From positions 1-41,281 of the IMG/VR virus record IMGVR_UViG_3300020215_000037: DNA of 41,281 bases; one strand, 5' to 3'. Below, piece by piece: positions 1,726 through 33,495 of the stretch; positions within the stretch are counted from its first letter, which is position 1; every line of letters starts with the position of its first letter. A program made the translations under genes and the position numbers. The notes beneath the pieces were generated by a model that saw only the letters and a list, made by a program, of their open reading frames with translations, made no database searches and had not been told where the DNA came from. Origin of the DNA: a virus.

Positions 1726-2136
1726 TTATTGGGGCAAAGATCCACCGAGGGCAGATGGATCAATGTCGGCGGCAGGTTTGGCGACGCCGTTAATCTCTTG
1801 GCTCACCAACATCTTGGAGAGGCTGCGAAGTCTTTCGTCTTCTGGATGGCCCTGAGATTGTTTGGAGATAAGAAGGGCAACAACGGGCTTGGTCATGCCT
1901 TCTGCGATTGCTCCCCTATCGTTCACGGCGATATTCCAATTAATCGCGTATTGAGCAAGGTAGTCTGTCCGGTGCTGTTGGAGTAACCACGAATAGTAAA
2001 GCATCCCGAGATAGCGATGGGGAAGGTTGCGGAGAAAGGCGAGCTGACGGCCTCGTGATTGGAGTTGCTCTGATAAGTGGGCTTGAGCGTAGACCATCAA
2101 GGCGAGAATGACGGAGATTTTGATGATAGTTTTCAT
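1726..2136 (-). CDS. Secreted protein of unknown function, last gene of the envelope operon
   Basis: Signal-like N-terminus MKTIIKISVILALMVYAQA. ATG overlaps the stop of 2133-2363 (ATGA). Confidence 0.6.
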   Translation of the reverse strand: MKTIIKISVILALMVYAQAHLSEQLQSRGRQLAFLRNLPHRYLGMLYYSWLLQQHRTDYLAQYAINWNIAVNDRGAIAEGMTKPVVALLISKQSQGHPEDERLRSLSKMLVSQEINGVAKPAADIDPSALGGSLPQ

Positions 2137-2363
2137 TTGGGTAACTTTTCGGCCAGAAATTCACCGCTCCAAAACGTTAGGCGCCCATTTTCTCCAGTGA
2201 AAGCAATGTAGTCCCGATAACACCGAATCTCGGTGCTTTGGAATACTCCCATCGATTTTCCGGCGCTGAAAAGCTCTAGGCGGTACAGGTCGACAGGTGT
2301 TATGAAAGGCTCGGGCTCTGAGCATCCCGCCAGGAGCAAGGCTGAAAGAATGATGTATTTCAT
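2133..2363 (-). CDS. Small lipoprotein
   Basis: MKYIILSALLLAGC has a lipobox LAG|C. ATGA-coupled to both the upstream and the downstream gene. Confidence 0.7.
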   Translation of the reverse strand: MKYIILSALLLAGCSEPEPFITPVDLYRLELFSAGKSMGVFQSTEIRCYRDYIAFTGENGRLTFWSGEFLAEKLPK

Positions 2364-3424
2364 ATTGATTTCCTCTCAATTCCAAGGATGCAGACACACG
2401 CCAAGAAGATCGACGGAATACCCGTAGGATTCCAGAGCCCAAAGCCGATAAAGGCGGCGATTCCACATAGACAGGCTGTATTGACCTCAGAAGGATATGA
2501 AAACGCCCTATAAGTCATCCTGGTAAGGAGAAAGAGCCATAGCGCGAGCCCTACAAGTCCGGTTTGAATGGCGATATCCAGGAAAACGTTGTGGCAGCGG
2601 TCAATATCGACTTTGAACGCAACGGGTTTGCCTCGGATGTGTTGAGTAATCGTTTCATGCTCACTTTTGCCAAAGAGGGTGCTTTGCGTATCTACTCCGT
2701 AACCCATGACCGGACGGATGGCGATATGCTCTAAAGCTTTCGTCGCAATGGCGGTTCGCGCTCCAGTTCCAAGGCTCTTCAAATCGAGCGTAAGCAGCTT
2801 TGGCAGGACCCCAACAACGGCAATGGCCAAGAGCGTGACTATGGTTGAAATAACCTCCTTGTGAAGCCTCTTGAAGTTCAAAGCCAAGTAGGCGCCTGCC
2901 CCAAACATAAGAGCAAAAATGATAGAGCGGTTACTTGTTAGGAATGTAAAGGGAATCGCGCACGCGATGAAAGCTGGATGTTTGGCCATGAGCATGCACG
3001 AACCAACGGCAGCAAAAGCAGAGATGGTGATATGCCCGTAAATGATGTTCTTATAGATTTCGGGCTTAATAAGCATCACAGAGAGGCAGATTGAGAGAAT
3101 GGCGCAAATGGTCAGAAAAAGACGGGGAAGCGTGGAGCATCTCCAGAAAAGCCAACCGAACCCGATCGCCAGAAGCCACATCGAAAGCCCTTCAAAACGC
3201 TTGTAATAGCCAAAGAGCGACATATCAAAATGATCTCCGAGGAGAGAGCAGAGTGCAGCCCATAGGAACCAAGCGATGAGGAGAATTCCGGGCTCTGAGA
3301 GTCTCTTTTCTGCTTTTGGGTGACAGCATAAGAGGCACATGGCCACGGCAATCATTCGGGCGGTTTGCCCTGAGATGGTCATTGCCGGGAAGAGGAAGAG
3401 GGTCAATAGGGCTAAGTGATTCAT
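2360..3424 (-). CDS. O-antigen ligase/polymerase-like (Wzy_C-type) polytopic membrane protein
   Basis: 354 aa with about 10 hydrophobic spans. The periplasmic loop motif RCHNVFLDIAIQTGLVGLALWLF matches the H-N-x-x-L-x(4)-[EQ]-x-G-x-x-G signature of the WaaL/Wzy family. Confidence 0.6.
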   Translation of the reverse strand: MNHLALLTLFLFPAMTISGQTARMIAVAMCLLCCHPKAEKRLSEPGILLIAWFLWAALCSLLGDHFDMSLFGYYKRFEGLSMWLLAIGFGWLFWRCSTLPRLFLTICAILSICLSVMLIKPEIYKNIIYGHITISAFAAVGSCMLMAKHPAFIACAIPFTFLTSNRSIIFALMFGAGAYLALNFKRLHKEVISTIVTLLAIAVVGVLPKLLTLDLKSLGTGARTAIATKALEHIAIRPVMGYGVDTQSTLFGKSEHETITQHIRGKPVAFKVDIDRCHNVFLDIAIQTGLVGLALWLFLLTRMTYRAFSYPSEVNTACLCGIAAFIGFGLWNPTGIPSIFLACVCILGIERKSI

Positions 3425-3579
3425 GGGCGGGCTCCCTTGGCTAGTTTGGCAATAATGCGTTGAAAGCGGTGTTTATAGCCTCGGTGCCATTTACATATAA
3501 CATCGGCTCTTTCATGAAGGCCAGCCACGCATAACGCTACAAGCTCACGCTCTCTGCTAGATAACCTTGAGCATCTCAT
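3421..3579 (-). CDS. 52-aa LuxR/GerE-type HTH-like protein (below the ORF-track size cut-off)
   Basis: Hand translation: MRCSRLSSRERELVALCVAGLHERADVICKWHRGYKHRFQRIIAKLAKGARP. LSxRERE..L...G and ..K.H...I..KL resemble a GerE HTH. ATGA overlaps occur at both ends. Confidence 0.4.
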   Translation of the reverse strand: MRCSRLSSRERELVALCVAGLHERADVICKWHRGYKHRFQRIIAKLAKGARP

Positions 3580-4175
3580 TTCATCTCCTTGATCTCAATG
3601 TCATCGAGCCAAATCGTCCCCACTCCCTCAGAGACAAAGACCATGTTAAAGAAGTCTGCCGCTCCGGTCTTGAACTTACAATCGGCTTGCGTCCAATCCA
3701 TCGAGCCATCTACTTGATGCGGAATGTAGGTCCTGTCATTCCATTTCGAATCGCAGGTCAGGAAAGCGGGGTTGCCCTTCACGTCCTTGGACTTTACCCA
3801 ATAGGAGAGGATGTAGGCTGTATTTGGTTTGCAGGGGATTCTTTGGTAGATGGCACCGTAGACGTTGGGGCGTTTCTCCTCGTGATTTTCGAGGATGGCG
3901 GAGCATTCCCCCGTATGAGCTTCTTTGTCGGTTTGGCCAATTTTGATGTTGGCTCCCTTGAGTGCAATGAAGCTCTCCCATATCTTTTGTTCCTCAAAGC
4001 CTCCGTTGAGGATCTTGGCCTCGATGGGAGGGCCTTTGACGGGGAGTTCCTTTTGGGTCTGCTTTGAGTAAAGGAGGGCGGCGATGATGATGCCTAGGAT
4101 GGCGATGGTGATGGGGGTTTTTAGGTTGTTCATTAAAATAAGTAAGTAGCGGAGGATGTTTTGCTCAGGGGTCAT
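3576..4175 (-). CDS. Membrane-anchored carbohydrate-binding-module-like (CBM4/9-like) protein
   Basis: N-terminal TM segment PITIAILGIIIAALLY. This is followed by ILNGGFEE..W, then a beta-rich domain with YILSYWVKS and a C-terminal IWLDDIEI, as in CenC-type CBMs. Confidence 0.5.
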   Translation of the reverse strand: MTPEQNILRYLLILMNNLKTPITIAILGIIIAALLYSKQTQKELPVKGPPIEAKILNGGFEEQKIWESFIALKGANIKIGQTDKEAHTGECSAILENHEEKRPNVYGAIYQRIPCKPNTAYILSYWVKSKDVKGNPAFLTCDSKWNDRTYIPHQVDGSMDWTQADCKFKTGAADFFNMVFVSEGVGTIWLDDIEIKEMK

Positions 4176-4197
4176 TTCATTACACTTTCTTTACAGG

Positions 4198-4383
4198 TCA
4201 TTCCCTCGGCCTCATTTGGTTGTAAGACACCTTCTGGAAGGTCAGGGCCTCGTAGGTGTACAGAAACCTTTCCGTGTCGGTTGCCCATGGGTGGCGAAAG
4301 CCGAAGACGATGTAGGCGACTGGTGCGTAGAGAGCGCACAGGAGAAGGACGATTGCTAAAATGGTTTTGAAGGTTTCTTTCAT
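4198..4383 (-). CDS. 61-aa membrane protein, first gene of the envelope operon
   Basis: TM segment TILAIVLLLCALYAPVAYIVFGF. It is preceded by a 64-nt intergenic region. Confidence 0.5.
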   Translation of the reverse strand: MKETFKTILAIVLLLCALYAPVAYIVFGFRHPWATDTERFLYTYEALTFQKVSYNQMRPRE

Positions 4384-4420
4384 TTCATCATTTCTATTTT
4401 AAATTGCCCCGCACGTAGCC

Positions 4421-4430
4421 GGAAATTTCC
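4421..4430. promoter_or_regulatory. Perfect palindrome GGAAATTTCC upstream of the envelope operon
   Basis: Lies in the 64-nt gap between the end of the early operon (4448) and the first envelope gene (4383). An A/T-rich TAAAAT-like element lies between it and the ATG on the minus strand. Confidence 0.2.
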
Positions 4431-4447
4431 AGCGCCATGCACATCGG

Positions 4448-4642: not shown

Positions 4643-4815
4643 CCCTCCTCCTTCACGGGCTTATGCCTGACAATGACCTCGTAAGATTCATCCTCTACCA
4701 CAACCGGGAGGGTGCAGGCTCCTGCTCCCATTCTCAGGAGATGCTCAACCAGGAGCTTAGCTAGTCTAGAGCCTTCAGAGAGTTCGGCAGATAGGTCTGG
4801 GTGGGGGTCGTCCAT
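4639..4815 (-). CDS. Hypothetical protein (58 aa, not in the ORF track)
   Basis: Hand translation: MDDPHPDLSAELSEGSRLAKLLVEHLLRMGAGACTLPVVVEDESYEVIVRHKPVKEEG. It fills the gap between dcm and 4448-4642, with an ATGA overlap downstream. Confidence 0.4.
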   Translation of the reverse strand: MDDPHPDLSAELSEGSRLAKLLVEHLLRMGAGACTLPVVVEDESYEVIVRHKPVKEEG

Positions 4816-4820
4816 AAATA

Positions 4821-5627
4821 TTATGGGGTCTTTGGGGTTTCTTGCGGGGGAGTGGGGTTAGTGGTTATTTGGCACATGATTTCTTTGAGGAAGATTTCCG
4901 CAACTTGCGGAACGATTGAGTTTCCGAGAAGGTCGCGTCGGTGTGATCCTTCGGGTATCCCATCATCCACTCTCTGTGGTTCGGATGTTGAGGACCACCA
5001 AGTTGCGTGTTGATCCCATCCCCGCTTGTTGCCGATGCCCCTTTGCGGTTCCAATCTCCACATACTGTTGGAGTCGAGAGCATCCTGTTGAGCTTCGCTT
5101 TCCCATGACTTCCTCCGTTGCCATCCTTGCAAGGAGTAGGCCAAAATCCAGACTCGGTCTCGGCGATGATTTGCACCAACGGCGGAAGCTGGTACACAGT
5201 TCCAGATAACATCATGCCCGAGCGCGGCCAAGTCCCTGAGAACTCCTCCAAAGACCCGTCCAGCATCATTTGAAAGGAGTCCTGGCACATTCTCCAGCAA
5301 GCACCATTGGGGCCGAATTTCGCCAATGACTCTGCACAGTTCGGGCCATAGGTGCCTTTCGTCGGAATCTCCACGCCTCGACCCGGCGAGGCTGAAAGGC
5401 TGGCAAGGAAAGCCTCCTGTAATGACATCCACATGGCCAATGAGTTCCTTGGCGATGTTTCGGATGTTTCCGTAGTTCGGCACTCCTGGCCAATGCTTTC
5501 GGAGGACGGCGCAAGCGTAGGGGTCGATCTCCGAGAATCCGATTGTGCGGAATCCAGCTCGTTCTCCGGCAAGGCTGAAGCCTCCGATTCCTGAGAAGAG
5601 GTCAAGCAAGGTGGGCTTTTCATTCAA
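4821..5627 (-). CDS. dcm: DNA (cytosine-5) methyltransferase, short-TRD phage type
   Basis: Motifs appear in canonical order. They are FSGIGG (I), GFPCQPFS (IV, catalytic Cys), LLENVPG (VI), HRRDRVWILAY (VIII) and LLGNSIVPQVAE (X). Confidence 0.9.
   Translation of the reverse strand: MNEKPTLLDLFSGIGGFSLAGERAGFRTIGFSEIDPYACAVLRKHWPGVPNYGNIRNIAKELIGHVDVITGGFPCQPFSLAGSRRGDSDERHLWPELCRVIGEIRPQWCLLENVPGLLSNDAGRVFGGVLRDLAALGHDVIWNCVPASAVGANHRRDRVWILAYSLQGWQRRKSWESEAQQDALDSNSMWRLEPQRGIGNKRGWDQHATWWSSTSEPQRVDDGIPEGSHRRDLLGNSIVPQVAEIFLKEIMCQITTNPTPPQETPKTP
4865..5623 (-). CDS. 252-codon ORF in the +1 frame, fully embedded in dcm (candidate overprinted gene)
   Basis: Uninterrupted from an ATG 4 nt after the dcm ATG. 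It encodes SGTWPRSGMMLSGTVYQLPPLV..ESGFWPTP and NHREWMMGYPKDHTD. See findings. Confidence 0.3.
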   Translation of the reverse strand: MKSPPCLTSSQESEASALPENELDSAQSDSRRSTPTLAPSSESIGQECRTTETSETSPRNSLAMWMSLQEAFLASLSASPGRGVEIPTKGTYGPNCAESLAKFGPNGACWRMCQDSFQMMLDGSLEEFSGTWPRSGMMLSGTVYQLPPLVQIIAETESGFWPTPCKDGNGGSHGKAKLNRMLSTPTVCGDWNRKGASATSGDGINTQLGGPQHPNHREWMMGYPKDHTDATFSETQSFRKLRKSSSKKSCAK

Positions 5628-6256
5628 AGCGCTCCCTCCCCCTTATTCTCTTTGTCTGCCGCCGAGGAAGGCGGAGGAGTTGCGGGCTCTCTCGAAGGAA
5701 TGGCGTTGTCCGTCGTTTGTGGCTCTTCCTTCGCGTCTTTACTGAAAAGCGCGTTTACTATGGCTTGAACTGTTAAGGATTCCTGAACTGATGGCGACAT
5801 GCGGCGGCGAATAGGCATACTTTCAGGCTGGACGCGAGGCCCCTCCAAATCGCAAATGCTCTTCCATGCTAACGTGTCACTATGGAAATATTCATCTCCT
5901 AAACGTGGTCCTTCTCCAACCTCTAACAGCCTCCACCCGCCCCCGCTCTGGGCTCGGGCTTCTTTCAGCTTCAAGATATACCTCTCCCGTTCGCGCTCCA
6001 TCAATTTGATGTTGTGATTGAGGCGTCCAATGTCGTTGTCCTTGTAGCGAATGGAACCTTGAGCCTTCTCCACCTCCTCCTTGAGAGCGGCGTTTTCAGC
6101 CTCAAGAGCTTTGATCTTTTCTGTGAGGGGTGAAAGTGTCGCTTCTGCCAGTTCTCGCCCCAACTTACTAAACGAGTCATCCTTAGGAATGGGCTGAGGC
6201 TCGCAAGTCGTCCCGTGTGTGAACCATGGCTGACCGCATGAAGGGCAATTACTCAC
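5624..6256 (-). CDS. Coiled-coil protein with N-terminal CxxC knuckle
   Basis: MSNCPSCGQPW, followed by a heptad-like KIKALEAENAALKEEVEKA. ATGA-coupled at both ends. Confidence 0.55.
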   Translation of the reverse strand: MSNCPSCGQPWFTHGTTCEPQPIPKDDSFSKLGRELAEATLSPLTEKIKALEAENAALKEEVEKAQGSIRYKDNDIGRLNHNIKLMERERERYILKLKEARAQSGGGWRLLEVGEGPRLGDEYFHSDTLAWKSICDLEGPRVQPESMPIRRRMSPSVQESLTVQAIVNALFSKDAKEEPQTTDNAIPSREPATPPPSSAADKENKGEGAL

Positions 6257-6456
6257 GAGAGCCTCCTTTCGCCGGTGATGGCAGCATCACACCTATGGCA
6301 CATGCACCCGTAAGATGGATGTGAGCGCGAAACCTCGCTGGTTCTGTAGAGCCTATGGCCACAACCGCAGCAGTTAATGACGATGGTGAACTCAGATCCT
6401 TTCAGCGGCTTTCGGACTCCCTCCCCCTCGGCGTTCTCCTTCGGATGCAGGCTCAC
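6253..6456 (-). CDS. Cys-rich small protein (Zn-ribbon-like)
   Basis: Contains CCGCGHRLY...GCMCHRCDAA. ATGA-coupled. Confidence 0.5.
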   Translation of the reverse strand: MSLHPKENAEGEGVRKPLKGSEFTIVINCCGCGHRLYRTSEVSRSHPSYGCMCHRCDAAITGERRLS

Positions 6457-6662
6457 ACTTCCTCCATGGGTTCAGGGATGCGCTGGGACCATTCCGCTTT
6501 AATCTGAGAAATATTTGTAAGCATTCCACGGGAACATTCCATCACTAGGCCGAATCCACTCGCTTCGACCCGCCGCATTCTCACGTTTTTCGGTCGATCT
6601 GCATAACGAGTCCAATACCATCCCGGCTCCGTTGGCTTCTTCTTCGTAAGTGTGAATTTCAT
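6453..6662 (-). CDS. Hypothetical protein (69 aa)
   Basis: In-phase member of the ATGA-coupled chain. Confidence 0.5.
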   Translation of the reverse strand: MKFTLTKKKPTEPGWYWTRYADRPKNVRMRRVEASGFGLVMECSRGMLTNISQIKAEWSQRIPEPMEEV

Positions 6663-7093
6663 AAATCTCCTTTGGTCTTTGACGGCTCTTGCGCGAGAGG
6701 AAGGGGCTCGTCGGTTTGATCCTGTACATGCCGAAGGTCACCCGCCTTCCACATATCCAATTCTCCTCGCTCATATTTATCGAAGCAGGATTTGCAGGCA
6801 TCACACCCAAACCATTCTCCGTCCCAGCCGTGAGGTACCGGCGTGCCTTCGTACATGGGGATACCTTGCTGACATCCATAAAGCTTTTCTCCGCAGATAT
6901 GGCACTCGGACTCGTGCAGCCACATTCTATTAATCGTAATCCTCACAGGCTCGTCCACACGAGGAGATGCTCCCTCCCCCGGTTTCTGCGTTTCAATTCC
7001 TTCGCTCATGGCTTCATTCATTAGTTTATTTGGGTTTAGGGGTGGGCAAGGCAGAGGGGCTACTGGGTGGGGGAGATGCATTGGGGGCCACAT
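6659..7093 (-). CDS. Cys-rich hypothetical protein; start uncertain (7093, 7081 or 7021)
   Basis: Contains CHICGEKLYGC...WFGCDACKSC. The longest form overlaps the 3' end of 7060-7824 by 34 nt. Confidence 0.5.
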   Translation of the reverse strand: MWPPMHLPHPVAPLPCPPLNPNKLMNEAMSEGIETQKPGEGASPRVDEPVRITINRMWLHESECHICGEKLYGCQQGIPMYEGTPVPHGWDGEWFGCDACKSCFDKYERGELDMWKAGDLRHVQDQTDEPLPLAQEPSKTKGDL

Positions 7094-7824
7094 TCGATGT
7101 CAGGCTCCGAATCGAATCGTCCGGCGTTTGGATCTAGCTCGTCCAAGAAAACCCGCTGCGTTACACCGTTCTTTGATAGTTTGAGAATCGCGTAACCGAT
7201 CTCCCGCTCTACGGCTGCAACGCGGTTAAAATGCTCAGGGAAGTCCTTGCGAATCTTGTTGAAGTAGCCAGCCCCACCCTTTACGCATCCGATACAGTTG
7301 TTATTTTTGTACCCCAATAGGTACATCGCTGGCATCGTGATCCCAGCCTCACGAATGATTCTGTAGCAGTCGGACTTCGTAACGCCTCGATCTCTTAGAA
7401 TCCAATCGCAATCAAGACCGTGGTTGTCCCTTTCGAAGTCCGTGATCCGGCCGGATTCGTCGGCTGTCATGCCGTAAATATCCGTGTCTCCCAGTTGACG
7501 ATAGGCTTTGCCAACCGCGCGTTTCAGTAGCTTCGTGCAGGGGGCTCCGTGGTGCCCCACAATGAATTGCTCCCCTCGAAACACTTCCATAATATCGGCG
7601 TACTTCGGATGTTTGAGGATCTTAACCTCTTTGCCGATCCACCTGGAGACATCAGCCATGAACCTTGCATTGTCTGGGTGCTCAAACTTGAGGGTGTCGC
7701 AATAGAGGATTTCCACTTGGTCATTGGGATACTTTTCAACTGCGAGTTTTGCGGCTACGGTAGAAGCAGCCCCACACGAGAACCAGACAAGTATCCGGCC
7801 TTGAAACATGAAGGTCTGTCTCAT
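7060..7824 (-). CDS. PAPS-reductase-family (PP-loop ATP pyrophosphatase-like) protein
   Basis: ILVWFSCGAAST (a variant of the SGGxDS PP-loop) is followed by VEILYCDTLKFEHPD. There is a C-terminal Cys cluster NNCIGC and CGPQC. Start set at ATG 7824, which is ATGA-coupled to the upstream stop. Confidence 0.55.
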   Translation of the reverse strand: MRQTFMFQGRILVWFSCGAASTVAAKLAVEKYPNDQVEILYCDTLKFEHPDNARFMADVSRWIGKEVKILKHPKYADIMEVFRGEQFIVGHHGAPCTKLLKRAVGKAYRQLGDTDIYGMTADESGRITDFERDNHGLDCDWILRDRGVTKSDCYRIIREAGITMPAMYLLGYKNNNCIGCVKGGAGYFNKIRKDFPEHFNRVAAVEREIGYAILKLSKNGVTQRVFLDELDPNAGRFDSEPDIECGPQCISPTQ

Positions 7825-8309
7825 GCGATGCCAATTACACGACCACCACACGACGGACAGCTCTCGCCTACGGAGATGGCGTTATGGTTAATCGGACATT
7901 CCACCTCCCCTTTCGACGCTTCCTCTTTGGCAGGAATGCAGAGGGCCTCTTGGATTCTCAGCTTTAATTCGCTGGCGTCGTAGTCTGTCATTAGCTCCAT
8001 CAGAGCGCCCTCGGCTTTACCAAGACAGTCCCGCAATGTCTCCATCTGCCCCCTTGCCGCTTCCAGCTCCCTCTCCAGCCTCTCGAACTCGTTTTTGTCA
8101 TGCAGGTTCAACCCGCAATAGCTTGTTCCTTCATCCCCTGAGACGATATGGGGGCATGGCTTGGACCGGAGGGCTTCCAGCTCTGCCTCAAGCTCTGAGA
8201 TGTGGGAGAGGAGTATGAGGTATCCGTCGTTGTAAGGATTGTGGGGCTCGATAGCCTTCATGGCTTCGGCTCCGTTCTTCATCGTTTGTAGATCGTCTTT
8301 GGTCATCAT
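7821..8309 (-). CDS. Coiled-coil protein with C-terminal Zn-ribbon
   Basis: ELEAELEALRS and ERLERELEAARGQ heptads. The C-terminus reads CPINHNAISVGESCPSCGG. Confidence 0.5.
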   Translation of the reverse strand: MMTKDDLQTMKNGAEAMKAIEPHNPYNDGYLILLSHISELEAELEALRSKPCPHIVSGDEGTSYCGLNLHDKNEFERLERELEAARGQMETLRDCLGKAEGALMELMTDYDASELKLRIQEALCIPAKEEASKGEVECPINHNAISVGESCPSCGGRVIGIA

Positions 8310-8479
8310 TTGGAGTCTTTCTTATTTTTAACTCGGTAGAGCATGAAATCGGCAAGCAAGTCCCAGAATTTGAAATGCTTCAGGAGTCTTTCCGCAGTCG
8401 CTTCTACGCACGCCACAAAGCAATAGATCGAGGACGCAATCATCAGGCCGTAGCCAAGCCACATGGCGAAATTATCCAT
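8306..8479 (-). CDS. 57-aa hydrophobic protein (not in the ORF track)
   Basis: Hand translation: MDNFAMWLGYGLMIASSIYCFVACVEATAERLLKHFKFWDLLADFMLYRVKNKKDSK. The stop is ATGA-coupled to ATG 8309. Confidence 0.4.
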   Translation of the reverse strand: MDNFAMWLGYGLMIASSIYCFVACVEATAERLLKHFKFWDLLADFMLYRVKNKKDSK

Positions 8480-9050
8480 GGCTCTCCTCCTTCTCGGCAG
8501 GCGTGGCGGGCGTAATGTCTGCCTCTGCGAGTATTCCTAGAACAGCCTCCTCCAGACAGTCGGTTAACCGTTTGGTGGATAAAAGCCCTTGGGCGAGGTC
8601 TTCAATGGCCTCAAGCCTCACCTCAAGCTCATCGCGCTCCTCTTTCACCGCTCGGAGTTCGGCCATCTGATTCTTTACGGTGGTTTTGAGTAGATTGAGG
8701 CAGTCGGTGATTTGCTCCCCGGCTTCGGCATATCCAAATAGATTCGACCATTCCGGGCTCGCACCAGTAACGAGGTAGTGAAAATGAGATGCGGCTTCTT
8801 CTGCGGCGTCACGTTCAACCATCGCTTGTTCAAGCTTCACCTCCACCGCTCGGAGTTCGGCTTTGTAGATCGTGACCAAGCCCTGCTCAACGAGCACCGC
8901 GTCTCGGAGTTCCTTGGATCTCTTAAGGAGGACTTCTGTATCATATTTGCAAATCTGCAATTCAGACTCTGCCTGAATGCGTGCGTCGTGCTCTTCCGTG
9001 AGAGCTTGGCGAAGATTTAAAAGTTCTTCCGCAATAGTTTGTTCGCTCAT
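8472..9050 (-). CDS. Coiled-coil hypothetical protein (192 aa)
   Basis: Long heptad-rich acidic ORF, ATGA-coupled upstream. Confidence 0.5.
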   Translation of the reverse strand: MSEQTIAEELLNLRQALTEEHDARIQAESELQICKYDTEVLLKRSKELRDAVLVEQGLVTIYKAELRAVEVKLEQAMVERDAAEEAASHFHYLVTGASPEWSNLFGYAEAGEQITDCLNLLKTTVKNQMAELRAVKEERDELEVRLEAIEDLAQGLLSTKRLTDCLEEAVLGILAEADITPATPAEKEESHG

Positions 9051-9637
9051 ATGGACTCCTTTTGTTTTAAGCCAAGCTTCGCAGCTGCTTTCATTTCGTT
9101 CCGTGTGTCTTTCGGGATACAGGGGCCGTCTGGATAGGGGCCTTCATTTACTGTTTCGTAAATGGCCTGCAAAAGGGCCTCCCGCATCACCTCTATAATG
9201 GATTGCGCTTCCCCCAACTCCCCCTCTGCCTGCTCTGCCTTCTCCTTCCATTTGGCCGCATCGTCTCGTGCTTCCCGCTTCTCCCGTATTAGACGGAGAA
9301 TGTTTATGTGAGTCGGTTCATCTGTAGCCGAAGGATCTCCATCCAGAACGCCGTCACACAATGCGAGTTCCTCCCGCAGTACACGCTCTCTCTCGTGTGA
9401 TGCGTCAATCTCAGATTGGCGGGCGTTCCAACCACCCCATGCGATTTCCCTTAAACGGAAATGGAGCCGCTTTCTAACATCCTCCTCGGTTTCAGGATTG
9501 CTGTAATATTCGTCGAAGCTCAGGGGCTCCACACGAGGAGCTACTCCCTCCTGCCCCTCAGGCTTTAACTCCTCTGGCTTTGGGCTCACCGATTCCGGCT
9601 GTTGGGGTGGGGTCGCGTCTTGGGGGTGGGAGTTCAT
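9047..9637 (-). CDS. Hypothetical protein (196 aa)
   Basis: In-phase member of the coupled chain. Confidence 0.5.
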   Translation of the reverse strand: MNSHPQDATPPQQPESVSPKPEELKPEGQEGVAPRVEPLSFDEYYSNPETEEDVRKRLHFRLREIAWGGWNARQSEIDASHERERVLREELALCDGVLDGDPSATDEPTHINILRLIREKREARDDAAKWKEKAEQAEGELGEAQSIIEVMREALLQAIYETVNEGPYPDGPCIPKDTRNEMKAAAKLGLKQKESI

Positions 9638-10104
9638 GCAACCCTCTGGTTCATTTCAATAATTTTGCAATCCCCACTCTGGATGGCGACGGCCTTAAGT
9701 GAGTCTACATTCCAAAGTCTTCGCACCCCATGTCCCCGCATAGCAACTGGCACATGTTCTTTGCGTAGGTTACCGATCATGGCATTAACGGCGTTCCAAG
9801 TGCGGCCAAGCTCTATTCCAATCTCTTCGCATGTTGCCTTTTCTTCCCTACGGCGAATCAGGTATTCCACCTCCCCTTGAGTCCAAGATTTATTAGACCT
9901 ACCAGCGACATGTCCTTTTGTTCTGCGTTCAAGAGGAACTCCATTGCTTCGCAACTTGCCGACCATTTTGAGCACTGAAGCCGTTGTAACTTCCAACTTG
10001 GTCGCAATATCAGATACGCTTTCGCGAGATGCCCACATTTGCATGAGCAAACGTAGTTCTTCTGTTGTCCAGCGGTGACCTGTGTAATGTAATGTTTTTT
10101 TCAT
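9634..10104 (-). CDS. DNA-binding protein with two tandem GcrA-N-terminal/Myb-like HTH repeats
   Basis: Repeat 1 is HRWTTEELRLLMQMWASRESVSDIATKLEVTTASVLKMVGKLR. Repeat 2 is KSWTQGEVEYLIRRREEKATCEEIGIELGRTWNAVNAMIGNLR. Confidence 0.4.
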   Translation of the reverse strand: MKKTLHYTGHRWTTEELRLLMQMWASRESVSDIATKLEVTTASVLKMVGKLRSNGVPLERRTKGHVAGRSNKSWTQGEVEYLIRRREEKATCEEIGIELGRTWNAVNAMIGNLRKEHVPVAMRGHGVRRLWNVDSLKAVAIQSGDCKIIEMNQRVA

Positions 10105-10108
10105 AAAT

Positions 10109-10276
10109 TTACTTCCTCTGGAGATTTTCGATGAAGGCGATAGTAGCCCTTGCGTTTCTTCTGGCGGGGCTGCTTCTTGGATGAAGCGCGATTTGCTTCA
10201 AGGTCTGCATGGTCAGTTCGAGCATTTTCTCAGTGAGATCATTCTTGTCTTTCCAGTAATAGGCGTCCTTTTTCAT
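10109..10276 (-). CDS. Hypothetical protein (55 aa; internal start of track ORF 10109-10405)
   Basis: ATG 10276 (MKKDAYYW) lies 5 nt after the stop of 10281-10514. The longer form would overlap that gene in another frame. Confidence 0.4.
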   Translation of the reverse strand: MKKDAYYWKDKNDLTEKMLELTMQTLKQIALHPRSSPARRNARATIAFIENLQRK

Positions 10277-10280
10277 ACTC

Positions 10281-10514
10281 TTATTTCCTCCTCTTTGTGG
10301 TGCGCTTGGGGGTGCGCTTGGGGGTGATGGGGCGGCGGGATGATATTTTTCGGTTAAGAGCTCCCAGTTCCCGAGCTGCATGCAAATAGGAGAGGGCCAT
10401 TCCAAGATATGGGGGAGACTTACCCTCCTTCCATTGGGCTTTCTTTTCTCTTCCTAAGGCTCGGAAGTATTCTTCCATGTGCTGGAGCCGTCCTTTAATT
10501 TCGGAAATCTTCAT
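10281..10514 (-). CDS. Hypothetical basic-tailed protein (77 aa)
   Basis: ATGA-coupled upstream. The C-terminus is PKRTPKRTTKRRK. Confidence 0.45.
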   Translation of the reverse strand: MKISEIKGRLQHMEEYFRALGREKKAQWKEGKSPPYLGMALSYLHAARELGALNRKISSRRPITPKRTPKRTTKRRK

Positions 10515-10879
10515 CGTTTTCCTTTCATGCGCTTGGGTTGGAGCTTGATACGCTCGCTATTGGCCATGAGCGTGTCGCACACTTTGTCCCAGTGCTTACG
10601 CTCGTTGAGCTTACAAATGGCGAACGATACCAATTTGCGAAGACGGGCGTTCGATTCTCCCAACTCCTTCACCTCTGCCCTTAGTCGTCTGTACTCGCCA
10701 AGGGACACGAGCATGTAGGGCTTTTCATCCAAAGCGTATTTATTCATCCAACGCTGAACATGATAATTAGCAGCCCATACCTTCACCGCACCACACGACT
10801 TAGAGGGCCTCTTTGTCAGAGGGCGTTTCAACTCTCCCCCTGCCTTCACCTTCAGCGCCTTCCCCTTACTCTTGCTCAT
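10511..10879 (-). CDS. Hypothetical basic protein (122 aa)
   Basis: ATGA-coupled at both ends. Confidence 0.5.
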   Translation of the reverse strand: MSKSKGKALKVKAGGELKRPLTKRPSKSCGAVKVWAANYHVQRWMNKYALDEKPYMLVSLGEYRRLRAEVKELGESNARLRKLVSFAICKLNERKHWDKVCDTLMANSERIKLQPKRMKGKR

Positions 10880-15477: not shown

Positions 15478-15963
15478 ATGAAATTCCAACTGTTGTTGCC
15501 TGTGATTATTTCTATTGCGCTTTCAGGATGCTCAACAAGCTATGAAGGCGGTTCATCAGCGATGCGACTGCAAGATGACATTTTTCAAGTCAGCTTTGAC
15601 GGAAACGGATATACAGATAGAGCGGAAGCGGGAGATTTCGCGCTTCTTAGAGCTGCTGACACTACCATTGAAAACGGCTATCGGTACTTTGTTGTTCTTG
15701 ACGAACGAGACTTGTCCAGGAGCGGCTCATTTACAACGCCCATGAGTTCTCAAACGCGAGGGGCGGCTCAAGTCAGAGGCAATCAACTTCGATACTCTGA
15801 AACAACTCAATACCATGGAGGCGACACCATTAATTTTGTGCTGCCCAACAAGACCTATATGATTCGCGCATTCAAAGAAAAACCATCTACCGAAAACATG
15901 GTTTTTAATGCTCAAGACCTTTCCGAGAATCTTCGCAAGAAGTACGACATCAAATCGAAATAA
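15478..15963 (+). CDS. Lipoprotein (CC0125/CC1285-like pattern)
   Basis: MKFQLLLPVIISIALSGC has a lipobox LSG|C. FQVSFDGNGYTDRAEAGDFALLRAADTTIENGYRYFVV resembles that lipoprotein family. Confidence 0.65.
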   Translation: MKFQLLLPVIISIALSGCSTSYEGGSSAMRLQDDIFQVSFDGNGYTDRAEAGDFALLRAADTTIENGYRYFVVLDERDLSRSGSFTTPMSSQTRGAAQVRGNQLRYSETTQYHGGDTINFVLPNKTYMIRAFKEKPSTENMVFNAQDLSENLRKKYDIKSK

Positions 15964-16099
15964 TGCGTCCGACGCAGAGAGAGATCCGAACACCGCCCCC
16001 CTGCTCGTGCGACGCGTTTTCTCGCAAAGGACTTGTTCTCCTCATTTTTCTGTTTTAAAGTCTCAACATGAAGCTGGGTCAAAAAACTACTCCAATTCG

Positions 16100-16771
16100 A
16101 TGTTACGTCCCGCCGAGAATCGTGAAAGACTTTGCTGGCGTGCGTGGCCGTGTCATGAATGTGGTAAGGGCCTCTCCCCAGTCAGTCACCTTATCGGATG
16201 TATTGACTCAGATAAGTCAGTTCGGACAGACAGCTTCGAAGTCAGGTGCAAAAAGCAGGTAGGCTGGCTCCAGAGATGGGTAGGTGAATGCCCCCATATC
16301 GGGGAGCATGTGCTCTCTTTAACAAAGGTCGGCGAAGGCTCTGAGCACAGGGTTTATGCGGACGATGCGCGAGCTAAAGTTTACAAGGCAACCTTGAGGA
16401 ATGTTTATGGAGACTGGTATTTTTTGGACGAAAATAATTTAGTCCATCAGGCTAGCTGCACGCCGATTGATTATCTCATTCGTTTGCATATTTGGGATAA
16501 ACTTTTCGGCTCTTTCCCAACGGCGCTCGGCATCACTGAGGCAGGTCAGATTGTCTCCATCCAGGACTTCATCCAGGGCGCAGAGCCAACACAGGAAGCT
16601 GTAGACGCTTTCCTGGAATCAGCAAACTTGACCCCAGTAAAAAAATCCCGATGGCTCTGGAAGCGCGATTACCCCGAAATCTCAGTGTGGGTAGGCGATG
16701 CACGGTGCGATAATTTTGTCACTACTGAGGCAGGGATCGCTCCGATTGATATTCGCCTTTGGTTTACTTAA
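16100..16771 (+). CDS. Atypical protein-kinase-like protein (polyvalent-protein kinase-like); N-terminus uncertain
   Basis: Motifs are VGEGSEHRVY (G-loop), AKVYKAT (Lys), DYLIRLHIWDKLFG, IVSIQDFIQGAEPT, VGDARCDNFV (catalytic-loop-like) and APIDIRL (metal-binding Asp). ORF 16068-16262 in another frame may supply the true N-terminus. Confidence 0.5.
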   Translation: MLRPAENRERLCWRAWPCHECGKGLSPVSHLIGCIDSDKSVRTDSFEVRCKKQVGWLQRWVGECPHIGEHVLSLTKVGEGSEHRVYADDARAKVYKATLRNVYGDWYFLDENNLVHQASCTPIDYLIRLHIWDKLFGSFPTALGITEAGQIVSIQDFIQGAEPTQEAVDAFLESANLTPVKKSRWLWKRDYPEISVWVGDARCDNFVTTEAGIAPIDIRLWFT

Positions 16772-17577: not shown

Positions 17578-17922
17578 ATGAAACCAGCCACTACTAATTG
17601 TGAACTTCTCCGGGCCTGTGAGCTTGCCCCTCTGATTGGCAAGTCTGCTTGGTGGGTCTGTGCGGCTCGAAAGGCCGGGATGCCCTTTTTCTGTGATGTG
17701 ATCACCTACAAGGACGCGGTCAAATGGATGCGGGCGAATCCTGATTTTAACGCGCAGGCGCAGTTTCCGACGAAGGCGCGAAAACCAAGGCCGTCACACA
17801 AGAGGAAAGGTCTTCCACTTTCAACCGCTGATAAATCCGATGAACTTCCACCGACGAATGCCCAACATAGCCCATTGCATCCCGCTCCGAGACCGTCTTT
17901 GAGCGAGCAAGCCTCGAAATAA
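17578..17922 (+). CDS. Excisionase/AlpA-MerR-like HTH protein
   Basis: LLRACELAPLIGKSAWWVCAARKAGMPFF...TYKDAVKWMRANPDF. The low-complexity basic tail overlaps the 3' end of int on the opposite strand. The start may be 17521 or 17578. Confidence 0.45.
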   Translation: MKPATTNCELLRACELAPLIGKSAWWVCAARKAGMPFFCDVITYKDAVKWMRANPDFNAQAQFPTKARKPRPSHKRKGLPLSTADKSDELPPTNAQHSPLHPAPRPSLSEQASK

Positions 17923-18817
17923 CAGTTACGCGCGTGCAATGAAAGCAATACTGAGGCAATCCAATCTTGCGAAAAAAGCGAGTCCATTGGGTGGAAGGTT
18001 GGGACGCGCAAGAAGGCTCCCAAGTGACTTTGCGCTTTTCGGCTTTCAACTTTTTCACAAGAGGGACGAGGCCCTGATGCAATTTAGTCGTGAAGACCTT
18101 CTTTCCTTTGGCGTGGAATTGAATCTCCATTTTCTCAAGGTCGATATGCTCCAGGGGGAGGGAAGTCTCCATGAGTCGGCAGCCTTGATGAAGGCCGATT
18201 TCAAAGGAAATTTGCATCCACTCCGGCCAATCCTTGAGGCCCGCGCGGATCTTCTCAATATCCGTTTCAGTGATCTCAGGCTTGATCTTTGGAGCATCCT
18301 TTTTAATCCCCAGCTCAGCGCATGGGTTGGCCATCGTGAGGTGAAAACGTCGGATAGCCTGCTTCATGAGGAGCTTCAAAACTCGCAGCTCATAAAGGGC
18401 GGTGTTTTTACTGGCGCCCTTTTTCAAGACGGAATGCTTCTTGCGCCAGGGGAAGTAGTCCATCACATGCTCATAGGCGACATGTCGAGGGCTGAGGATC
18501 TCCTTTTCCTTCAAGTAAACGGAAAGGCTGTTCCATGCGCTCTGGTATCGGGTATGAGTTTTACTTTCCTTGGGGTATTGCAGATTGAGGAAGTCCTGAA
18601 CCCAGGCGCCCCAAGCCTCTCCGGAGCTCGCAGAGCCATTCCTAAGCTCATTGGCGGTGGTTGTGGCGCAGAGCTGCTTGGCTTGATTAGTCTGCTTTTT
18701 ATCGTCCCATCGGAAGACTGTTGGTTTTCCAGACCAGTTGCCTTTCCCGTCCTTGGCCTTGATGTACCAAAAGGGAGATTTTTTAATCGTGTAGAGGCTC
18801 GCCATGGAGTTCACCAT
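17747..18817 (-). CDS. int: Tyrosine recombinase (phage integrase)
   Basis: Catalytic signature: GCRLMET (Arg I), FHCTRVT (H-x-x-R) and GHSSVEVHRIY (His/Tyr). It is adjacent to the attP candidate. Confidence 0.85.
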   Translation of the reverse strand: MVNSMASLYTIKKSPFWYIKAKDGKGNWSGKPTVFRWDDKKQTNQAKQLCATTTANELRNGSASSGEAWGAWVQDFLNLQYPKESKTHTRYQSAWNSLSVYLKEKEILSPRHVAYEHVMDYFPWRKKHSVLKKGASKNTALYELRVLKLLMKQAIRRFHLTMANPCAELGIKKDAPKIKPEITETDIEKIRAGLKDWPEWMQISFEIGLHQGCRLMETSLPLEHIDLEKMEIQFHAKGKKVFTTKLHQGLVPLVKKLKAEKRKVTWEPSCASQPSTQWTRFFRKIGLPQYCFHCTRVTVISRLARSKTVSERDAMGYVGHSSVEVHRIYQRLKVEDLSSCVTALVFAPSSETAPAR

Positions 18818-18826
18818 AGTTCACCA
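18808..18826 (+). repeat. Two tandem AGTTCACCA repeats (arm-type Int-binding site candidates)
   Basis: AGTTCACCA at 18808-18816 and at 18818-18826. They overlap the int start codon. Confidence 0.5.
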
Positions 18827-18903
18827 AGAAATCAAAATCTAGCCCATTTAAGCCCTAACCTTACCTATGGGCCACAAATTAAACCAAAGACATCTCACCT
18901 GGC

Positions 18904-18941
18904 TACGAAACGCAAGCGCTCTACCACTGAGCTAAGCGCGC
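18904..18941 (-). other. tRNA gene 5' half (acceptor stem, D-arm and anticodon stem, into the loop); attP core candidate
   Basis: The minus strand reads GCGCGCT TA GCTC AGTGGTA GAGC G CTTGC GTTTCGT. T8, A14, G18G19 and A21 are in place. Downstream sequence has no anticodon-stem complement and no T-arm. Confidence 0.55.
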
Positions 18942-18956
18942 TGGGTAAATTTGGTG

Positions 18957-18976
18957 AGTTCACCAAAAGTTCACCA
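18957..18976 (+). repeat. Two more AGTTCACCA repeats on the other side of the tRNA-like core
   Basis: AGTTCACCA at 18957-18965 and at 18968-18976, in the same orientation as the first pair. Confidence 0.5.
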
Positions 18977-19156
18977 AAACCCGCCCTTTCCAGCCGTCTG
19001 AAAGGGCTCCAAGTGACCGAAAGCCTGCCCTGTCAGGGGCGGCGTTTCAACTCCTTTTTCCCGCCGCGCCACGTGGCCCCCTGTACTTCGGCTTTTGCTC
19101 GTCCAGGGCATTCCTGTGGAGCGGCGGCGTCTTTTCTCAACCTTAACTAAATCCCC

Positions 19157-29145: not shown

Positions 29146-29220
29146 CGCGGGATAGGAAAGGAGTAATCCGTCTGCCTCATAAGCAGAAGATCGCTGGTGC
29201 AAGTCCGGCTCCCGCAACCA
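29146..29220 (+). tRNA. tRNA-Met (anticodon CAT), initiator-like, CCA encoded
   Basis: Hand-folded cloverleaf: CGCGGGA TA GGAA AGGAGTA ATCC G TCTGC CTCATAA GCAGA AGATC GCTGG TGCAAGT CCGGC TCCCGCA A CCA. It has the C1xA72 mismatch and the CGCGGG.../...CCCGCAACCA ends seen in bacterial tRNA-fMet. Confidence 0.75.
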
Positions 29221-31293: not shown

Positions 31294-31884
31294 ATGAAAA
31301 AGTATATCCTTGCAGTAATCGCGTTAGCTGTGGCGCTTGTGTTGCCTCTCCAGGCTGAGTACGTCAATTCGACGTTCTCCAGCTCTGCCGATGGCACCAC
31401 GTCTGCTACGGTGTTCGTCCCGAAAGGAAGTGGATTCGCTCACATTACCGACTTGTCCTATGACTTGGACTCGGCGGTAACTACTGGAACTGTGGACATC
31501 CGGGCGGCTGAGTCGGAGCAATCCATTGCTTCGGCGACGTCGGGAACTGGTACGGTTCTGTGGTTCGATAATGATCCGACTCATGTGTCAGCACAAGAGT
31601 ATGTGATCTTTTTCGATGAAAGTGCCAATGCGTACTTCCTGTACAAATGCACAGCGACGGCGGCGGCTTCGATCACCATTCAGGAGACTGCACCTATTAC
31701 GACTACCTCGGATAAGGTGTATCCCTTGAAAGCCACGGCGCGACGCCATGCAGTCAATGTGATATCAGGCTCCCTCGGGTCCGCTGATATCTGGCTCCCG
31801 TCAGACCTGCCTTCAGCGCTGACGATCGACGGCAATACGACCTCCTGCCGAATCAGCATCAACGGCGTCAAAATCCGAAACTAA
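31294..31884 (+). CDS. Beta-rich protein with Sec-signal-like N-terminus
   Basis: MKKYILAVIALAVALVLPLQA|EY. The rest is Ser/Thr/Ala-rich. Confidence 0.55.
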   Translation: MKKYILAVIALAVALVLPLQAEYVNSTFSSSADGTTSATVFVPKGSGFAHITDLSYDLDSAVTTGTVDIRAAESEQSIASATSGTGTVLWFDNDPTHVSAQEYVIFFDESANAYFLYKCTATAAASITIQETAPITTTSDKVYPLKATARRHAVNVISGSLGSADIWLPSDLPSALTIDGNTTSCRISINGVKIRN

Positions 31885-31944
31885 GGGGTTAATGGGGAGA
31901 GCGGGGAAGGTTCGATTCCTTCTCCGCTCTTTCACTATTTCATT

Positions 31945-32397
31945 ATGAAACGATTTCTTATCGCGGTTCTTTGCCTTGTTGTGGGGATTGCTTCCGCTCA
32001 AGGGCCTGAATCCTTCAGCCTGACCCCGAGCGTAACCTCTCTTGCCGCCAACAGCACCAATTCGACGGCGGGAACGGTTAAGAAGCTTGCCGACGGTGAA
32101 AACAATGTTCGTATCTATCTGACTGCAACAGGGGGCGCGGCGACCACGAACGGGACGCTTGTTGTTAAGTTCATTACTGCAAGCGGTTCGGGGGACACAA
32201 CAAACACCTTTGACACTGCCAGCCTAAGCGAAATCAAGCTCACGATGAGCAGCCTTGGAGCCAATACGTATACTATCAGCGACCGCTTTGTCTTGAGCGG
32301 GGCCAAGTACATCAAGGTAGGGCAAATCGAGAACACGTTTGCGGGCGCTGCAAGTAATTTCGTCATCACGGTTGGCTATCCACTAAAGGACCAATGA
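31945..32397 (+). CDS. Beta-rich protein with Sec-signal-like N-terminus
   Basis: MKRFLIAVLCLVVGIASA|QG. Confidence 0.55.
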   Translation: MKRFLIAVLCLVVGIASAQGPESFSLTPSVTSLAANSTNSTAGTVKKLADGENNVRIYLTATGGAATTNGTLVVKFITASGSGDTTNTFDTASLSEIKLTMSSLGANTYTISDRFVLSGAKYIKVGQIENTFAGAASNFVITVGYPLKDQ

Positions 32398-33173
32398 AAA
32401 TCCCCTCTAAATACGTTTGGCTCGCGCTCTGCCTTGTGGCCTGCGTGTCGTTTGCTGCCTCGGTGAGTGATTTACAGACGGTAGACGGGGAGCAGCGCAA
32501 CAAGGTCCAGGCCATCATTGACACTGAGACTGACGGGATGGTGACGACCACGAGCGGGGATTCTCGGTATGTGAATACTTCGGGCGATACCATGACAGGG
32601 GCTTTGACGATTTCAAACGCGCTTAATATCACTTCAGGTACAACCACGAATGAAACAGCGGTCTTGAACTATCCGGGACTCCGCACGCATTTTACTCCTC
32701 GGCAAATTACGCAACTAAGAGCGGTTTCGGTCAATGCGGGAGCGGTTATTGGAGGCTCCTATTCTCTCCTCGGGACTACGGGGTCTATTCGCTTCCCTGA
32801 AACCGGAGGTAGTCCTTATTACCAATTAGGAATGTCGCTCAATTTTACCCCAGGGCGAAACTATCGGGTCATTTCTACCTTCAGCTACGAAACCAACTAC
32901 ATCAATACTGCCGGGGCTTACGACATTCTCTTCGAGTATCTCTACTCCACCAATCGGCAAGTTGGGGGCTATGTAACGGTTGATTCTTTTTGTCCAACCA
33001 CAATTGCGACCAACAGCACCGGGGGGTCTTTTGTGTGGACAAACACGGTCGTTGTGCCTTCCACGCCTACCTATGGCTTTGAAATTTACATGCTTCGAGC
33101 CACTGCATCCGGAACAGATACCGCTGTAGGTGGACTCTCTGAGGATAAACAAGTCATCGAGGAGATTAAATAA
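32394..33173 (+). CDS. Fibre-like protein with signal/lipobox-like N-terminus
   Basis: MKIPSKYVWLALCLVAC (LVA|C lipobox-like). DSRYVNTSGDTMTGALTI resembles a common tail-fibre motif. Confidence 0.5.
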   Translation: MKIPSKYVWLALCLVACVSFAASVSDLQTVDGEQRNKVQAIIDTETDGMVTTTSGDSRYVNTSGDTMTGALTISNALNITSGTTTNETAVLNYPGLRTHFTPRQITQLRAVSVNAGAVIGGSYSLLGTTGSIRFPETGGSPYYQLGMSLNFTPGRNYRVISTFSYETNYINTAGAYDILFEYLYSTNRQVGGYVTVDSFCPTTIATNSTGGSFVWTNTVVVPSTPTYGFEIYMLRATASGTDTAVGGLSEDKQVIEEIK

Positions 33174-33174
33174 C

Positions 33175-33495
33175 ATGAAAACGTTTTTATTCGTTATGGC
33201 CGGGATTCTTACTTTTTCAGCTGTTACTCTTTCCGCGCAAAAGGCAACAGATGCGCGGGCGTCAAACCCGCCTGTAAATATTAAGGCGCAAGAGGCTCAA
33301 ACTGACTCACGCCCCGTCGCAGTGAGAGATGTTGAGGACAGGCACGACTTTACGAAACTTAAAGCTTTGAAAGCACAAGCGATAGGAGTTGGTGGAGCGG
33401 TAGATCAAGCGGCCCTCGTTGCTTATCTTGAAAACCTCATACTCCTTTCCAAGACCTGCGACCCAAAGCACGTCCTCAAAGAGGTGAATAAGTAA
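33175..33495 (+). CDS. Small protein with Sec-signal-like N-terminus (106 aa)
   Basis: ATG 33175. The N-terminus is MKTFLFVMAGILTFSAVTLSA|QK. Confidence 0.5.
   Translation: MKTFLFVMAGILTFSAVTLSAQKATDARASNPPVNIKAQEAQTDSRPVAVRDVEDRHDFTKLKALKAQAIGVGGAVDQAALVAYLENLILLSKTCDPKHVLKEVNK

Follow-up and report, generated by a model that had tools for sequence, protein, structure and literature searches.

The 41,281-nt stretch of viral DNA analyzed here, hereafter the window (positions 1 to 41,281 of the IMG/VR virus record IMGVR_UViG_3300020215_000037), is a complete circular temperate phage genome of ~41 kb, and the distal end of its leftward (early) gene array, which converges on the plus-strand virion genes, is formed by a block of six closely packed open reading frames (ORFs), numbered here g1 to g6 in the direction of transcription. 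Two of these, g4, which by its Pfam match encodes a member of the Wzy_C O-antigen polymerase/ligase superfamily, and g6, which encodes a small protein of an unannotated orphan family with a signal-peptide-like N-terminus, are found together in every informative lineage, and it is with moderate confidence that we take this two-gene core to be the functional unit, with the other four ORFs being interchangeable, envelope-directed cargo. Our best reading of the core, for which our confidence is likewise middling, is that of a lysogenic-conversion or superinfection-exclusion module that would repolymerize or religate undecaprenyl-pyrophosphate (Und-PP)-linked surface glycan with the participation of a new orphan partner family. 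The block and its two flanking spacers are organized as follows, with TM standing for transmembrane and HTH for helix-turn-helix:

g1, 4198-4383, minus strand: 61 aa, single TM segment; variable cargo.
g2, 3576-4175, minus strand: 199 aa, N-terminal TM anchor and a putative, marginally CBM_4_9-like beta-sandwich domain; lineage-variable cargo.
g3, 3421-3579, minus strand: 52-aa basic ORF, doubtful as a gene and as an HTH protein.
g4, 2360-3424, minus strand: 354-aa polytopic membrane protein matching the Wzy_C family; one half of the conserved core.
g5, 2133-2363, minus strand: 76-aa predicted lipoprotein (lipobox LLAG|C); variable cargo.
g6, 1726-2136, minus strand: 136-aa exported all-helical protein (predicted) of an orphan family lacking annotation; second half of the core.
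Upstream spacer, 4384-4447: 64 nt, holding the palindrome GGAAATTTCC at 4421-4430.
Convergent spacer, 1675-1725: 51 nt, between g6 and the last gene of the virion module (696 aa).

The evidence that singles out g4 and g6 comes from their relatives, all of which are metagenomic. Homologue searches returned 14 proteins related to g4, at 49-70% identity, and 14 related to g6, at 57-74%, many of them on contigs that have the same length, and for the test of co-occurrence the DNA around the homologues was fetched and searched in all frames, the first ten lineages being the window itself, L005, L007, L009, L011, L012, L014, L020, L021, and L022, and the eleventh being L024. A g6 homologue lies zero to three genes after the Wzy_C gene in 11/11 informative lineages (the window counted), always converging on large virion genes, and the identities to g4 and g6 across these pairs range from 70%/71% down to 29%/34%. 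The lower end of the range is set by L024, a 40.5-kb phage contig in which the g6 relative (34% identical) stands one small gene after a Wzy_C protein that is 29% identical to g4; in L007, L009, and L021, g6 is shortened or overlooked in the public gene calls. Both core proteins are better conserved than the neighboring structural and early proteins, which are conserved poorly or not at all. Co-conservation of the whole six-gene block, which the preliminary description of this DNA had put forward as the check on its proposal of a single system, fails for most of the genes, g4 and g6 being the only two that travel together throughout.

No homologue of g1 or g3 was found in any relative, and the position matching g3 in L005 is taken by an unrelated small hydrophobic ORF. 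The sole relative of g5 is a weakly similar 94-aa TM-anchored protein in L011 (phmmer E 4e-4). A 158-aa lipoprotein of the closest relative, L005 (28% identity, tblastn E 6e-9), is clearly homologous to g2, and two other homologues are possible, a CBM_4_9 protein 5 kb upstream in L022 and a lipoprotein in L021 (BLASTP E 0.012, suggestive); a search of 5.8 billion proteins recovered only g2 itself, and the L021 lipoprotein was missed by a CBM profile built from two sequences. Around the pair, the slots are filled differently from lineage to lineage, with lipoproteins, TM peptides, an HNH protein, secreted SNase-type nucleases, and cytoplasmic-looking proteins, and the distribution of these flanking cargo genes is patchy. 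In two lineages a GT-C/PMT_2-like polytopic protein of 500-525 aa is encoded directly upstream of Wzy_C (L012 101-1678, L022 3389-4891), the L012 gene overlapping the Wzy_C start and the L022 gene lying 110 nt upstream of it; the L012 and L022 proteins share 37% identity, and one of them matches Pfam PMT_2 at E 1.8e-5. These variable slots amount to a list of envelope-directed cargo in an uncultured phage lineage, comprising CBM-like lipoproteins, a GT-C-like transferase, and secreted nucleases.

Two further features of the variable region were noted in passing. SNase-type nucleases with a signal peptide occupy the cargo region at L007 8202-8585 and L009 2764-3195, and one of their genes overlaps the Wzy_C start. 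In several relatives (L005, L007, L020, and L024) a gap of 200-340 nt lies directly upstream of Wzy_C, and the gaps of the relatives have no DNA motif in common; uncalled small Cys/His-rich ORFs with zinc-ribbon-like CxxC...CxxH motifs are found in such gaps (L007 5688-6001, L014 5548-5780, L020 816-1156, and L024 5588-5794).

The layout of the block itself is as the preliminary description had it: all six minus-strand ORFs are present, with 4-nt ATGA overlaps at 3576-3579, 3421-3424, 2360-2363, and 2133-2136 and a fifth junction that is a 22-nt gap, as are the 64-nt spacer with its palindrome and the convergence with the late genes, the virion-module gene that faces the block on the plus strand stopping at 1674. 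The overlaps do not mark the block out, because they are common genome-wide (24/68 same-strand junctions; 20/63 outside the block). The palindrome GGAAATTTCC is present in a single copy, has at least one chance copy in 12/100 shuffles, and does not occur in any relative. In the spacer 4384-4447, neither a sigma-70-like promoter nor a terminator was detected, the counts of the region being no higher than those of shuffles, and the spacer 1675-1725 holds no inverted repeat and no terminator-like site. Searches of PHROGs, NCBIfam, and PADLOC added no annotation of the block proteins beyond that of Pfam.

Among the cargo ORFs, all block products except that of g3 are predicted to be envelope-directed. 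The CBM4/9 claim made for g2 passes the Pfam threshold for CBM_4_9 by a narrow margin (E 9.6e-6, 26.5 bits against a gathering score of 25.9, residues 54-180), and the similarity to the CBM entries 2ZEW/3OEB of the PDB is weak (phmmer E 0.0023), so the predicted protein is marginally CBM_4_9-like and membrane-anchored. The lipoprotein and secreted-protein assignments can be read directly from the sequence: the signal peptide of g5 ends in a lipobox, MKYIILSALLLAG|C, as bacterial lipoproteins do, and the N-terminus of g6 is signal-peptide-like. The family matches of g5 are weak and confined to its signal peptide (LPAM_1 E 0.12, Rz-like 0.043, Cor 0.18, EexN 0.22), and its identification as an Rz-like spanin or as Cor (PHROG) was set aside on that account. 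The 52-aa ORF g3, which had been put down as a GerE/LuxR-like HTH "mini-regulator," is a different case. Pfam and NCBIfam (at E up to 1) and the PDB gave no match to it, BLASTP aligned it with neither GerE nor RpoE region 4, and after these four tests the assignment was rejected as an eye-level resemblance (LSxRERE...GL...K.R..R...KL); a further resemblance, between g3 and a small L020 ORF lying upstream of Wzy_C, likewise gave no alignment. Its codon-usage score (-0.085) is reached or exceeded by 74% of the non-listed ORFs and is like that of spurious ORFs; a Shine-Dalgarno motif (AAGGAG) and an ATGA overlap at either end stand in its favor, and the status of g3 as a gene is doubtful. The public gene calls skip g1, which is probably coding, because its codon-usage score (0.20) places it in the top 0.6% of non-listed ORFs.

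The assignment of the 354-aa protein g4 to Wzy_C, also made in the preliminary description, is well supported, with a match to Pfam Wzy_C (PF04932) at E 7.8e-16 and 58.6 bits (gathering score 31.7) over residues 152-297, in which the model is covered in full (2-149); all 14 g4 relatives match PF04932 as well, and g4 scores higher on this model than E. coli WaaL (50 bits) or Wzy-beta of Pseudomonas phage D3 (21.9 bits). Its AlphaFold2 (AF2) model (pLDDT 66.5, pTM 0.73) contains ~11 TM helices, on which the hydropathy segments agree, and a 68-aa loop (212-279), which would be periplasmic, ahead of the motif helix 280-309. The best fold match in the PDB of this model of pLDDT 66.5 is WaaL 7TPG (E 1.2e-3, prob 1.00, TM-score 0.49), and the next is FtsW. 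In hhalign comparisons, which gave low-probability alignments used for residue correspondence only (185 columns and E 0.018 against WaaL; 87 columns and E 0.11 against D3 Wzy-beta), g4 R166, R223, and H278 align with R215, R288, and H338 of E. coli WaaL, residues that are important for WaaL function and conserved in PglL (PMC3643930). The three g4 residues are invariant in 15 sequences and retained in the 29%-identical L024 protein. The last of them opens the motif H278-N-x9-G289-x-x-G292, reading HNVFLDIAIQTGLVG, which is the HX10G motif whose His is essential in D3 Wzy-beta (PMC4815439).

The second core protein, g6, has no match in Pfam, PHROGs, NCBIfam, PADLOC, or the PDB sequences, and an exhaustive profile search of 1.84 billion representatives recovered a family of 36 clusters at 50% identity, whose members are all 47-151 aa long and all stand-alone, none being fused to another domain. 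The AF2 model (pLDDT 76) consists of five helices and has no significant fold match in the PDB or BFVD. The N-terminus resembles a signal peptide, with a K-rich n-region and an h-region of 11-13 hydrophobic residues; g6 has the canonical cleavage site AQA|H, which most homologues lack, and the C-terminal tail, which is rich in Ala/Pro/Ser and is the one region that looks sequon-like, is likewise missing from most homologues. From its strict company with g4 and its signal-peptide-like start, we infer that g6 is a periplasmic partner of the Wzy_C enzyme.

A profile scan of genome contigs with the Wzy alignment gave one weak match, to a bacterial metagenome-assembled genome, L010 (MAG210), which at 4700-10556 encodes two tandem bacterial Wzy_C-TPR proteins of 998 aa and 940 aa. 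These share with g4 the FGxxKR[FY]EGL loop motif and the HNx9GxxG motif, and in each of them the Wzy_C core is followed by an additional TM segment and, at the C-terminus, by a long TPR domain, the layout that g4 and g6, with its hydrophobic N-terminus and helical domain, would have if fused; this likeness of layout favors, by inference only, a subunit role for g6. The identification of g6 itself as a TPR domain is not demonstrable, the hhalign comparison with the TPR tail of L010 aligning only 8 columns, and neither a TPR Pfam match nor a significant TPR-like fold match (prob 0.35 or less) was obtained. We nonetheless advance, tentatively and as a proposal that we hold doubtful, that g6 founds a new family of periplasmic Wzy_C partners, a free-standing counterpart of the tail of TM segment plus helical repeats that is fused to many Wzy_C proteins of bacteria, which would set the acceptor or the competing host enzyme that is acted on. 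If true, the phage pair would represent a glycan polymerase/ligase in its minimal form, split into two subunits, as well as an alternative, based on a protein, to the peptide inhibitor Iap, and the g6 family would provide a handle on the function of Wzy_C-TPR proteins.

In the mechanism that we favor for the pair, g4 in the lysogen would take the host's Und-PP-linked glycan repeat units at the periplasmic face and would join or transfer them with a linkage or to an acceptor unlike that of the host enzyme, and the resulting altered O-antigen or capsule-like surface glycan would block the adsorption of the same and of related phages. As an obligatory periplasmic partner, g6 may silence the host polymerase, the role that Iap has in D3, or serve as the substrate- or acceptor-binding subunit of g4, and g1, g2, g3, and g5 would be interchangeable cargo that merely shares a tightly packed operon tail. 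Glycan-related genes that relatives add at the same spot, the GT-C PMT_2-like genes of L012 and L022 and the CBM-like proteins, speak for this reading. The preliminary description had likewise proposed a glycan-remodeling or superinfection-exclusion system, which is still the best reading of a block that bears a Wzy_C gene; what is not supported is the idea that the six genes form one system.

The closest functional parallel is the seroconversion unit of Pseudomonas phage D3 (wzy-beta, iap, and oac) and of epsilon15, which are temperate like the window phage. Both they and the window phage encode a Wzy_C-type polytopic enzyme of ~350-390 aa with ~10 TM helices and the HX10G motif (D3 Wzy-beta has 386 aa and 10 TM segments; PMC4815439), and in D3 as in the window the enzyme is accompanied by a small second component, with iap and wzy-beta lying immediately after a tail gene on the opposite strand, the same position as that of g4 and g6. 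Beyond the Pfam family there is no sequence similarity between the D3/epsilon15 enzymes and g4 (no tblastn match; hhalign as above), and the partners differ, Iap of D3 being a 31-aa peptide whereas g6 is predicted to be a folded, exported helical protein of ~115 residues; no Iap-like short peptide gene was recognized, g6 being unrelated to Iap in size and sequence. D3 also has an O-acetylase gene (oac), which the window unit lacks, and the order of the window genes, enzyme then partner in one operon, is unlike that of D3.

Two other systems narrow the gap in precedent that was claimed when the block was first described. Variovorax phage VarioGold encodes, in VG_p25-p28, a protein of the O-antigen ligase (Wzy_C) family that has 10 TM segments and after it three co-oriented small proteins with TM segments or signal peptides, and this cluster lies beside late genes and was proposed to be moron-like and expressed in lysogeny (PMC9658991). 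It was described in a single phage, co-conservation of the partners is not part of the description, and VarioGold is not among the tblastn matches of g4 or g6 in deposited phage genomes. Prophages of Acinetobacter baumannii carry two polymerases near a tail (depolymerase) gene, Wzy1Ph of the EpsG family, for which a new inter-repeat linkage has been shown, and Wzy2Ph of the Wzy_C family, to which a second new linkage was assigned by similarity; an unidentified factor keeps the polymerase of the host silent, and downstream ORFs are co-transferred (PMC13228068). In that system the glycan is a capsule, the host is known, and no g6 homologue has been reported, and the adjoining tail gene encodes a depolymerase, whereas the virion gene adjoining the block in the window is not identifiable as one. 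The function proposed for the pair is of an already known kind, and what is new is the g6 family.

Phage-driven changes of O-antigen or capsule decide phage host range, serotype, and recognition by vaccines or antibodies. To our knowledge, the mechanism by which a phage polymerase outcompetes the host enzyme is known for one case only, the Iap peptide of D3. For the Acinetobacter prophages, how the phage polymerase displaces the host enzyme is expressly left open (PMC13228068), and g6, which has stayed beside its Wzy_C enzyme through deep divergence, offers a concrete and testable candidate for the missing component of host-enzyme takeover.

Several observations weigh against a lysogenic-conversion module of this kind. 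Membership in Wzy_C does not tell polymerases from WaaL ligases or O-oligosaccharyltransferases (O-OTases), the profile comparison of g4 with D3 Wzy-beta is insignificant, and g6 resembles neither Iap nor any other known protein or fold. The block is not set off by any promoter or terminator signal, so it is possibly transcribed with the early lytic genes and not in lysogeny, and the presence of the pair in every relative could reflect a function in the infection cycle of the phage itself. The 3.7-kb contig L023, finally, carries a distant g6 homologue with no Wzy_C gene within the 850 nt available upstream, and is uninformative.

The first of these points leads to the alternative that g4 is a WaaL-like ligase or a PilO/TfpO/PglL-like O-OTase that moves the Und-PP-linked glycan onto a new acceptor, which might be lipid A-core, a pilin or surface protein of the host, or the exported proteins encoded alongside, with g6 being the acceptor or an acceptor-recruiting subunit. 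We regard this as unlikely, and it is the most serious of the alternatives. The three residues common to WaaL and PglL (PMC3643930) are retained in g4, whose best fold match is WaaL and whose hhalign alignment extends over 185 columns with WaaL as opposed to 87 with D3 Wzy-beta; the nearest genome match comes from a bacterium and combines Wzy_C, a TM segment, and a TPR domain in one protein; and genes of O-OTases typically adjoin the target gene in the same orientation (PMC3643930), which would suit g6, always adjacent, co-oriented, and (as predicted) exported. Neither of the PglL-specific motifs, PglL_A or PglL_B (Wzy_C_2), gave a Pfam match in g4 at E up to 1; this would be compatible with O-OTase activity, because enzymes of the PilO type also lack these motifs (PMC3643930). 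On the other side, g4 is short (354 aa compared with 419 aa in E. coli WaaL), neither g6 nor the other neighbors of g4 are pilin-like, the sequon-like tail of g6 is missing from most homologues, and the known phage precedents (D3, epsilon15, and the Acinetobacter prophages) are polymerases.

It is less probable still that the pair serves the lytic cycle, being made early and remodeling or blocking the receptor glycan, or sequestering Und-P-linked intermediates, such that there is no superinfection and no progeny is lost on debris. The block is contiguous and co-oriented with early genes (ERF and the C5 methylase), with no detectable promoter or terminator between them, and the pair is universal in the lineage, unlike typical optional morons. 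Yet polymerized surface glycan is replaced over generations and not within minutes, the gaps upstream of Wzy_C in L005, L007, L020, and L024 could hold independent promoters, and the characterized phage Wzy genes act in lysogens (PMC4815439, PMC13228068). As for the moron position that had been ascribed to the block, it does lie beside virion genes, as the D3 seroconversion genes do, but a sporadic foreign insert is not what the core pair resembles, which shows neither its own promoter or terminator, nor a patchy distribution, nor an atypical composition (the G+C of the block is 0.50-0.51, equal to that of the genome).

That all six genes form one envelope-modification system, composed of an enzyme, a sugar-binding module, a lipoprotein, a secreted protein, a TM protein, and a regulator, is very improbable, for although the tight packing with four ATGA overlaps, the envelope-directed predictions for all products but g3, the CBM-like anchored proteins near Wzy_C in up to three other lineages, and the g5-like protein of L011 would suit it, g1 and g3 are without homologues in the relatives and g5 and g2 have one weak and one clear homologue, respectively, unrelated genes (HNH, SNase, and cytoplasmic-looking proteins) fill the same slots in relatives, ATGA overlaps are the norm of this genome, and g3 shows no sign of an HTH and its coding statistics are poor.

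The setting of the block is a temperate phage genome. The sequence of the window was assembled at 41.2-41.3 kb in two samples, pieces of it are present in two further samples, and one gene (696 aa, the last of the virion module) spans both window ends; the genome is complete and circular because the same sequence was assembled at full size twice and a gene spans the ends. A tyrosine integrase encoded at 17747-18817, which matches phrog_1 at E 1.4e-28, and an XRE-like protein mark the phage as temperate, and it is probably podovirus-like. The other proteins recognized are an ERF recombinase, a C5 methylase, a helicase, and a Toprim primase, and on the virion side the large terminase (TerL), the major head protein, and an SU10-type adaptor; the putative portal protein (636 aa) is without a family match. 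In 8 kb of the window no megablast match was found among deposited phage genomes, tblastn with g4, g6, and the putative portal protein gave no match in 50,697 deposited phage records, and scans of IMG/VR, metagenomes, and GTDB species genomes revealed no close relative beyond one sister phage.

A number of minor observations were made elsewhere in the window and its relatives. FGE-sulfatase (formylglycine-generating-enzyme-like) proteins are encoded, with E 1e-18 for the domain, in the early region of both L011 (928-1539) and L014 (877-1560). The C5 cytosine methylase of the window (4821-5627; 268 aa, TTG start, Pfam E 8.5e-49) is overlapped almost fully by a 252-aa ATG ORF in another frame, which the public gene calls picked and which is probably a mis-call, being without a family match; similarly, a 403-aa ORF at 17939-19150, antisense to the integrase, looks spurious, and a choice by longest ORF would prefer it. 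Beside the immunity/integrase region, 15478-16771 encodes two proteins, one a lipoprotein of 161 aa (lipobox LSG|C) and the other 287 aa long and matching Kinase-PolyVal slightly below threshold (E 7e-6), and is possibly a second site of lysogeny-expressed cargo. A tRNA-Met (CAT) gene lies within the head-gene region at 29146-29220, and a 201-aa protein of the late region (33965-34570) weakly matches alpha/beta-hydrolases (Ser_hydrolase E 0.003); no lysis genes were recognized in the phage. Four consecutive plus-strand ORFs (31294-33495; 196, 150, 259, and 121 aa), situated between the genes for the major head protein and for the adaptor, all have signal-peptide-like hydrophobic leaders, which is unusual for proteins of a structural module; the leader stands at the start in three of them (MKKYILAVIALAV..., MKRFLIAVLCLVV..., and MKIPSKYVWLALCLVAC...) and after an internal Met at residue 16 in the fourth (...MKTFLFVMAGILTF...).

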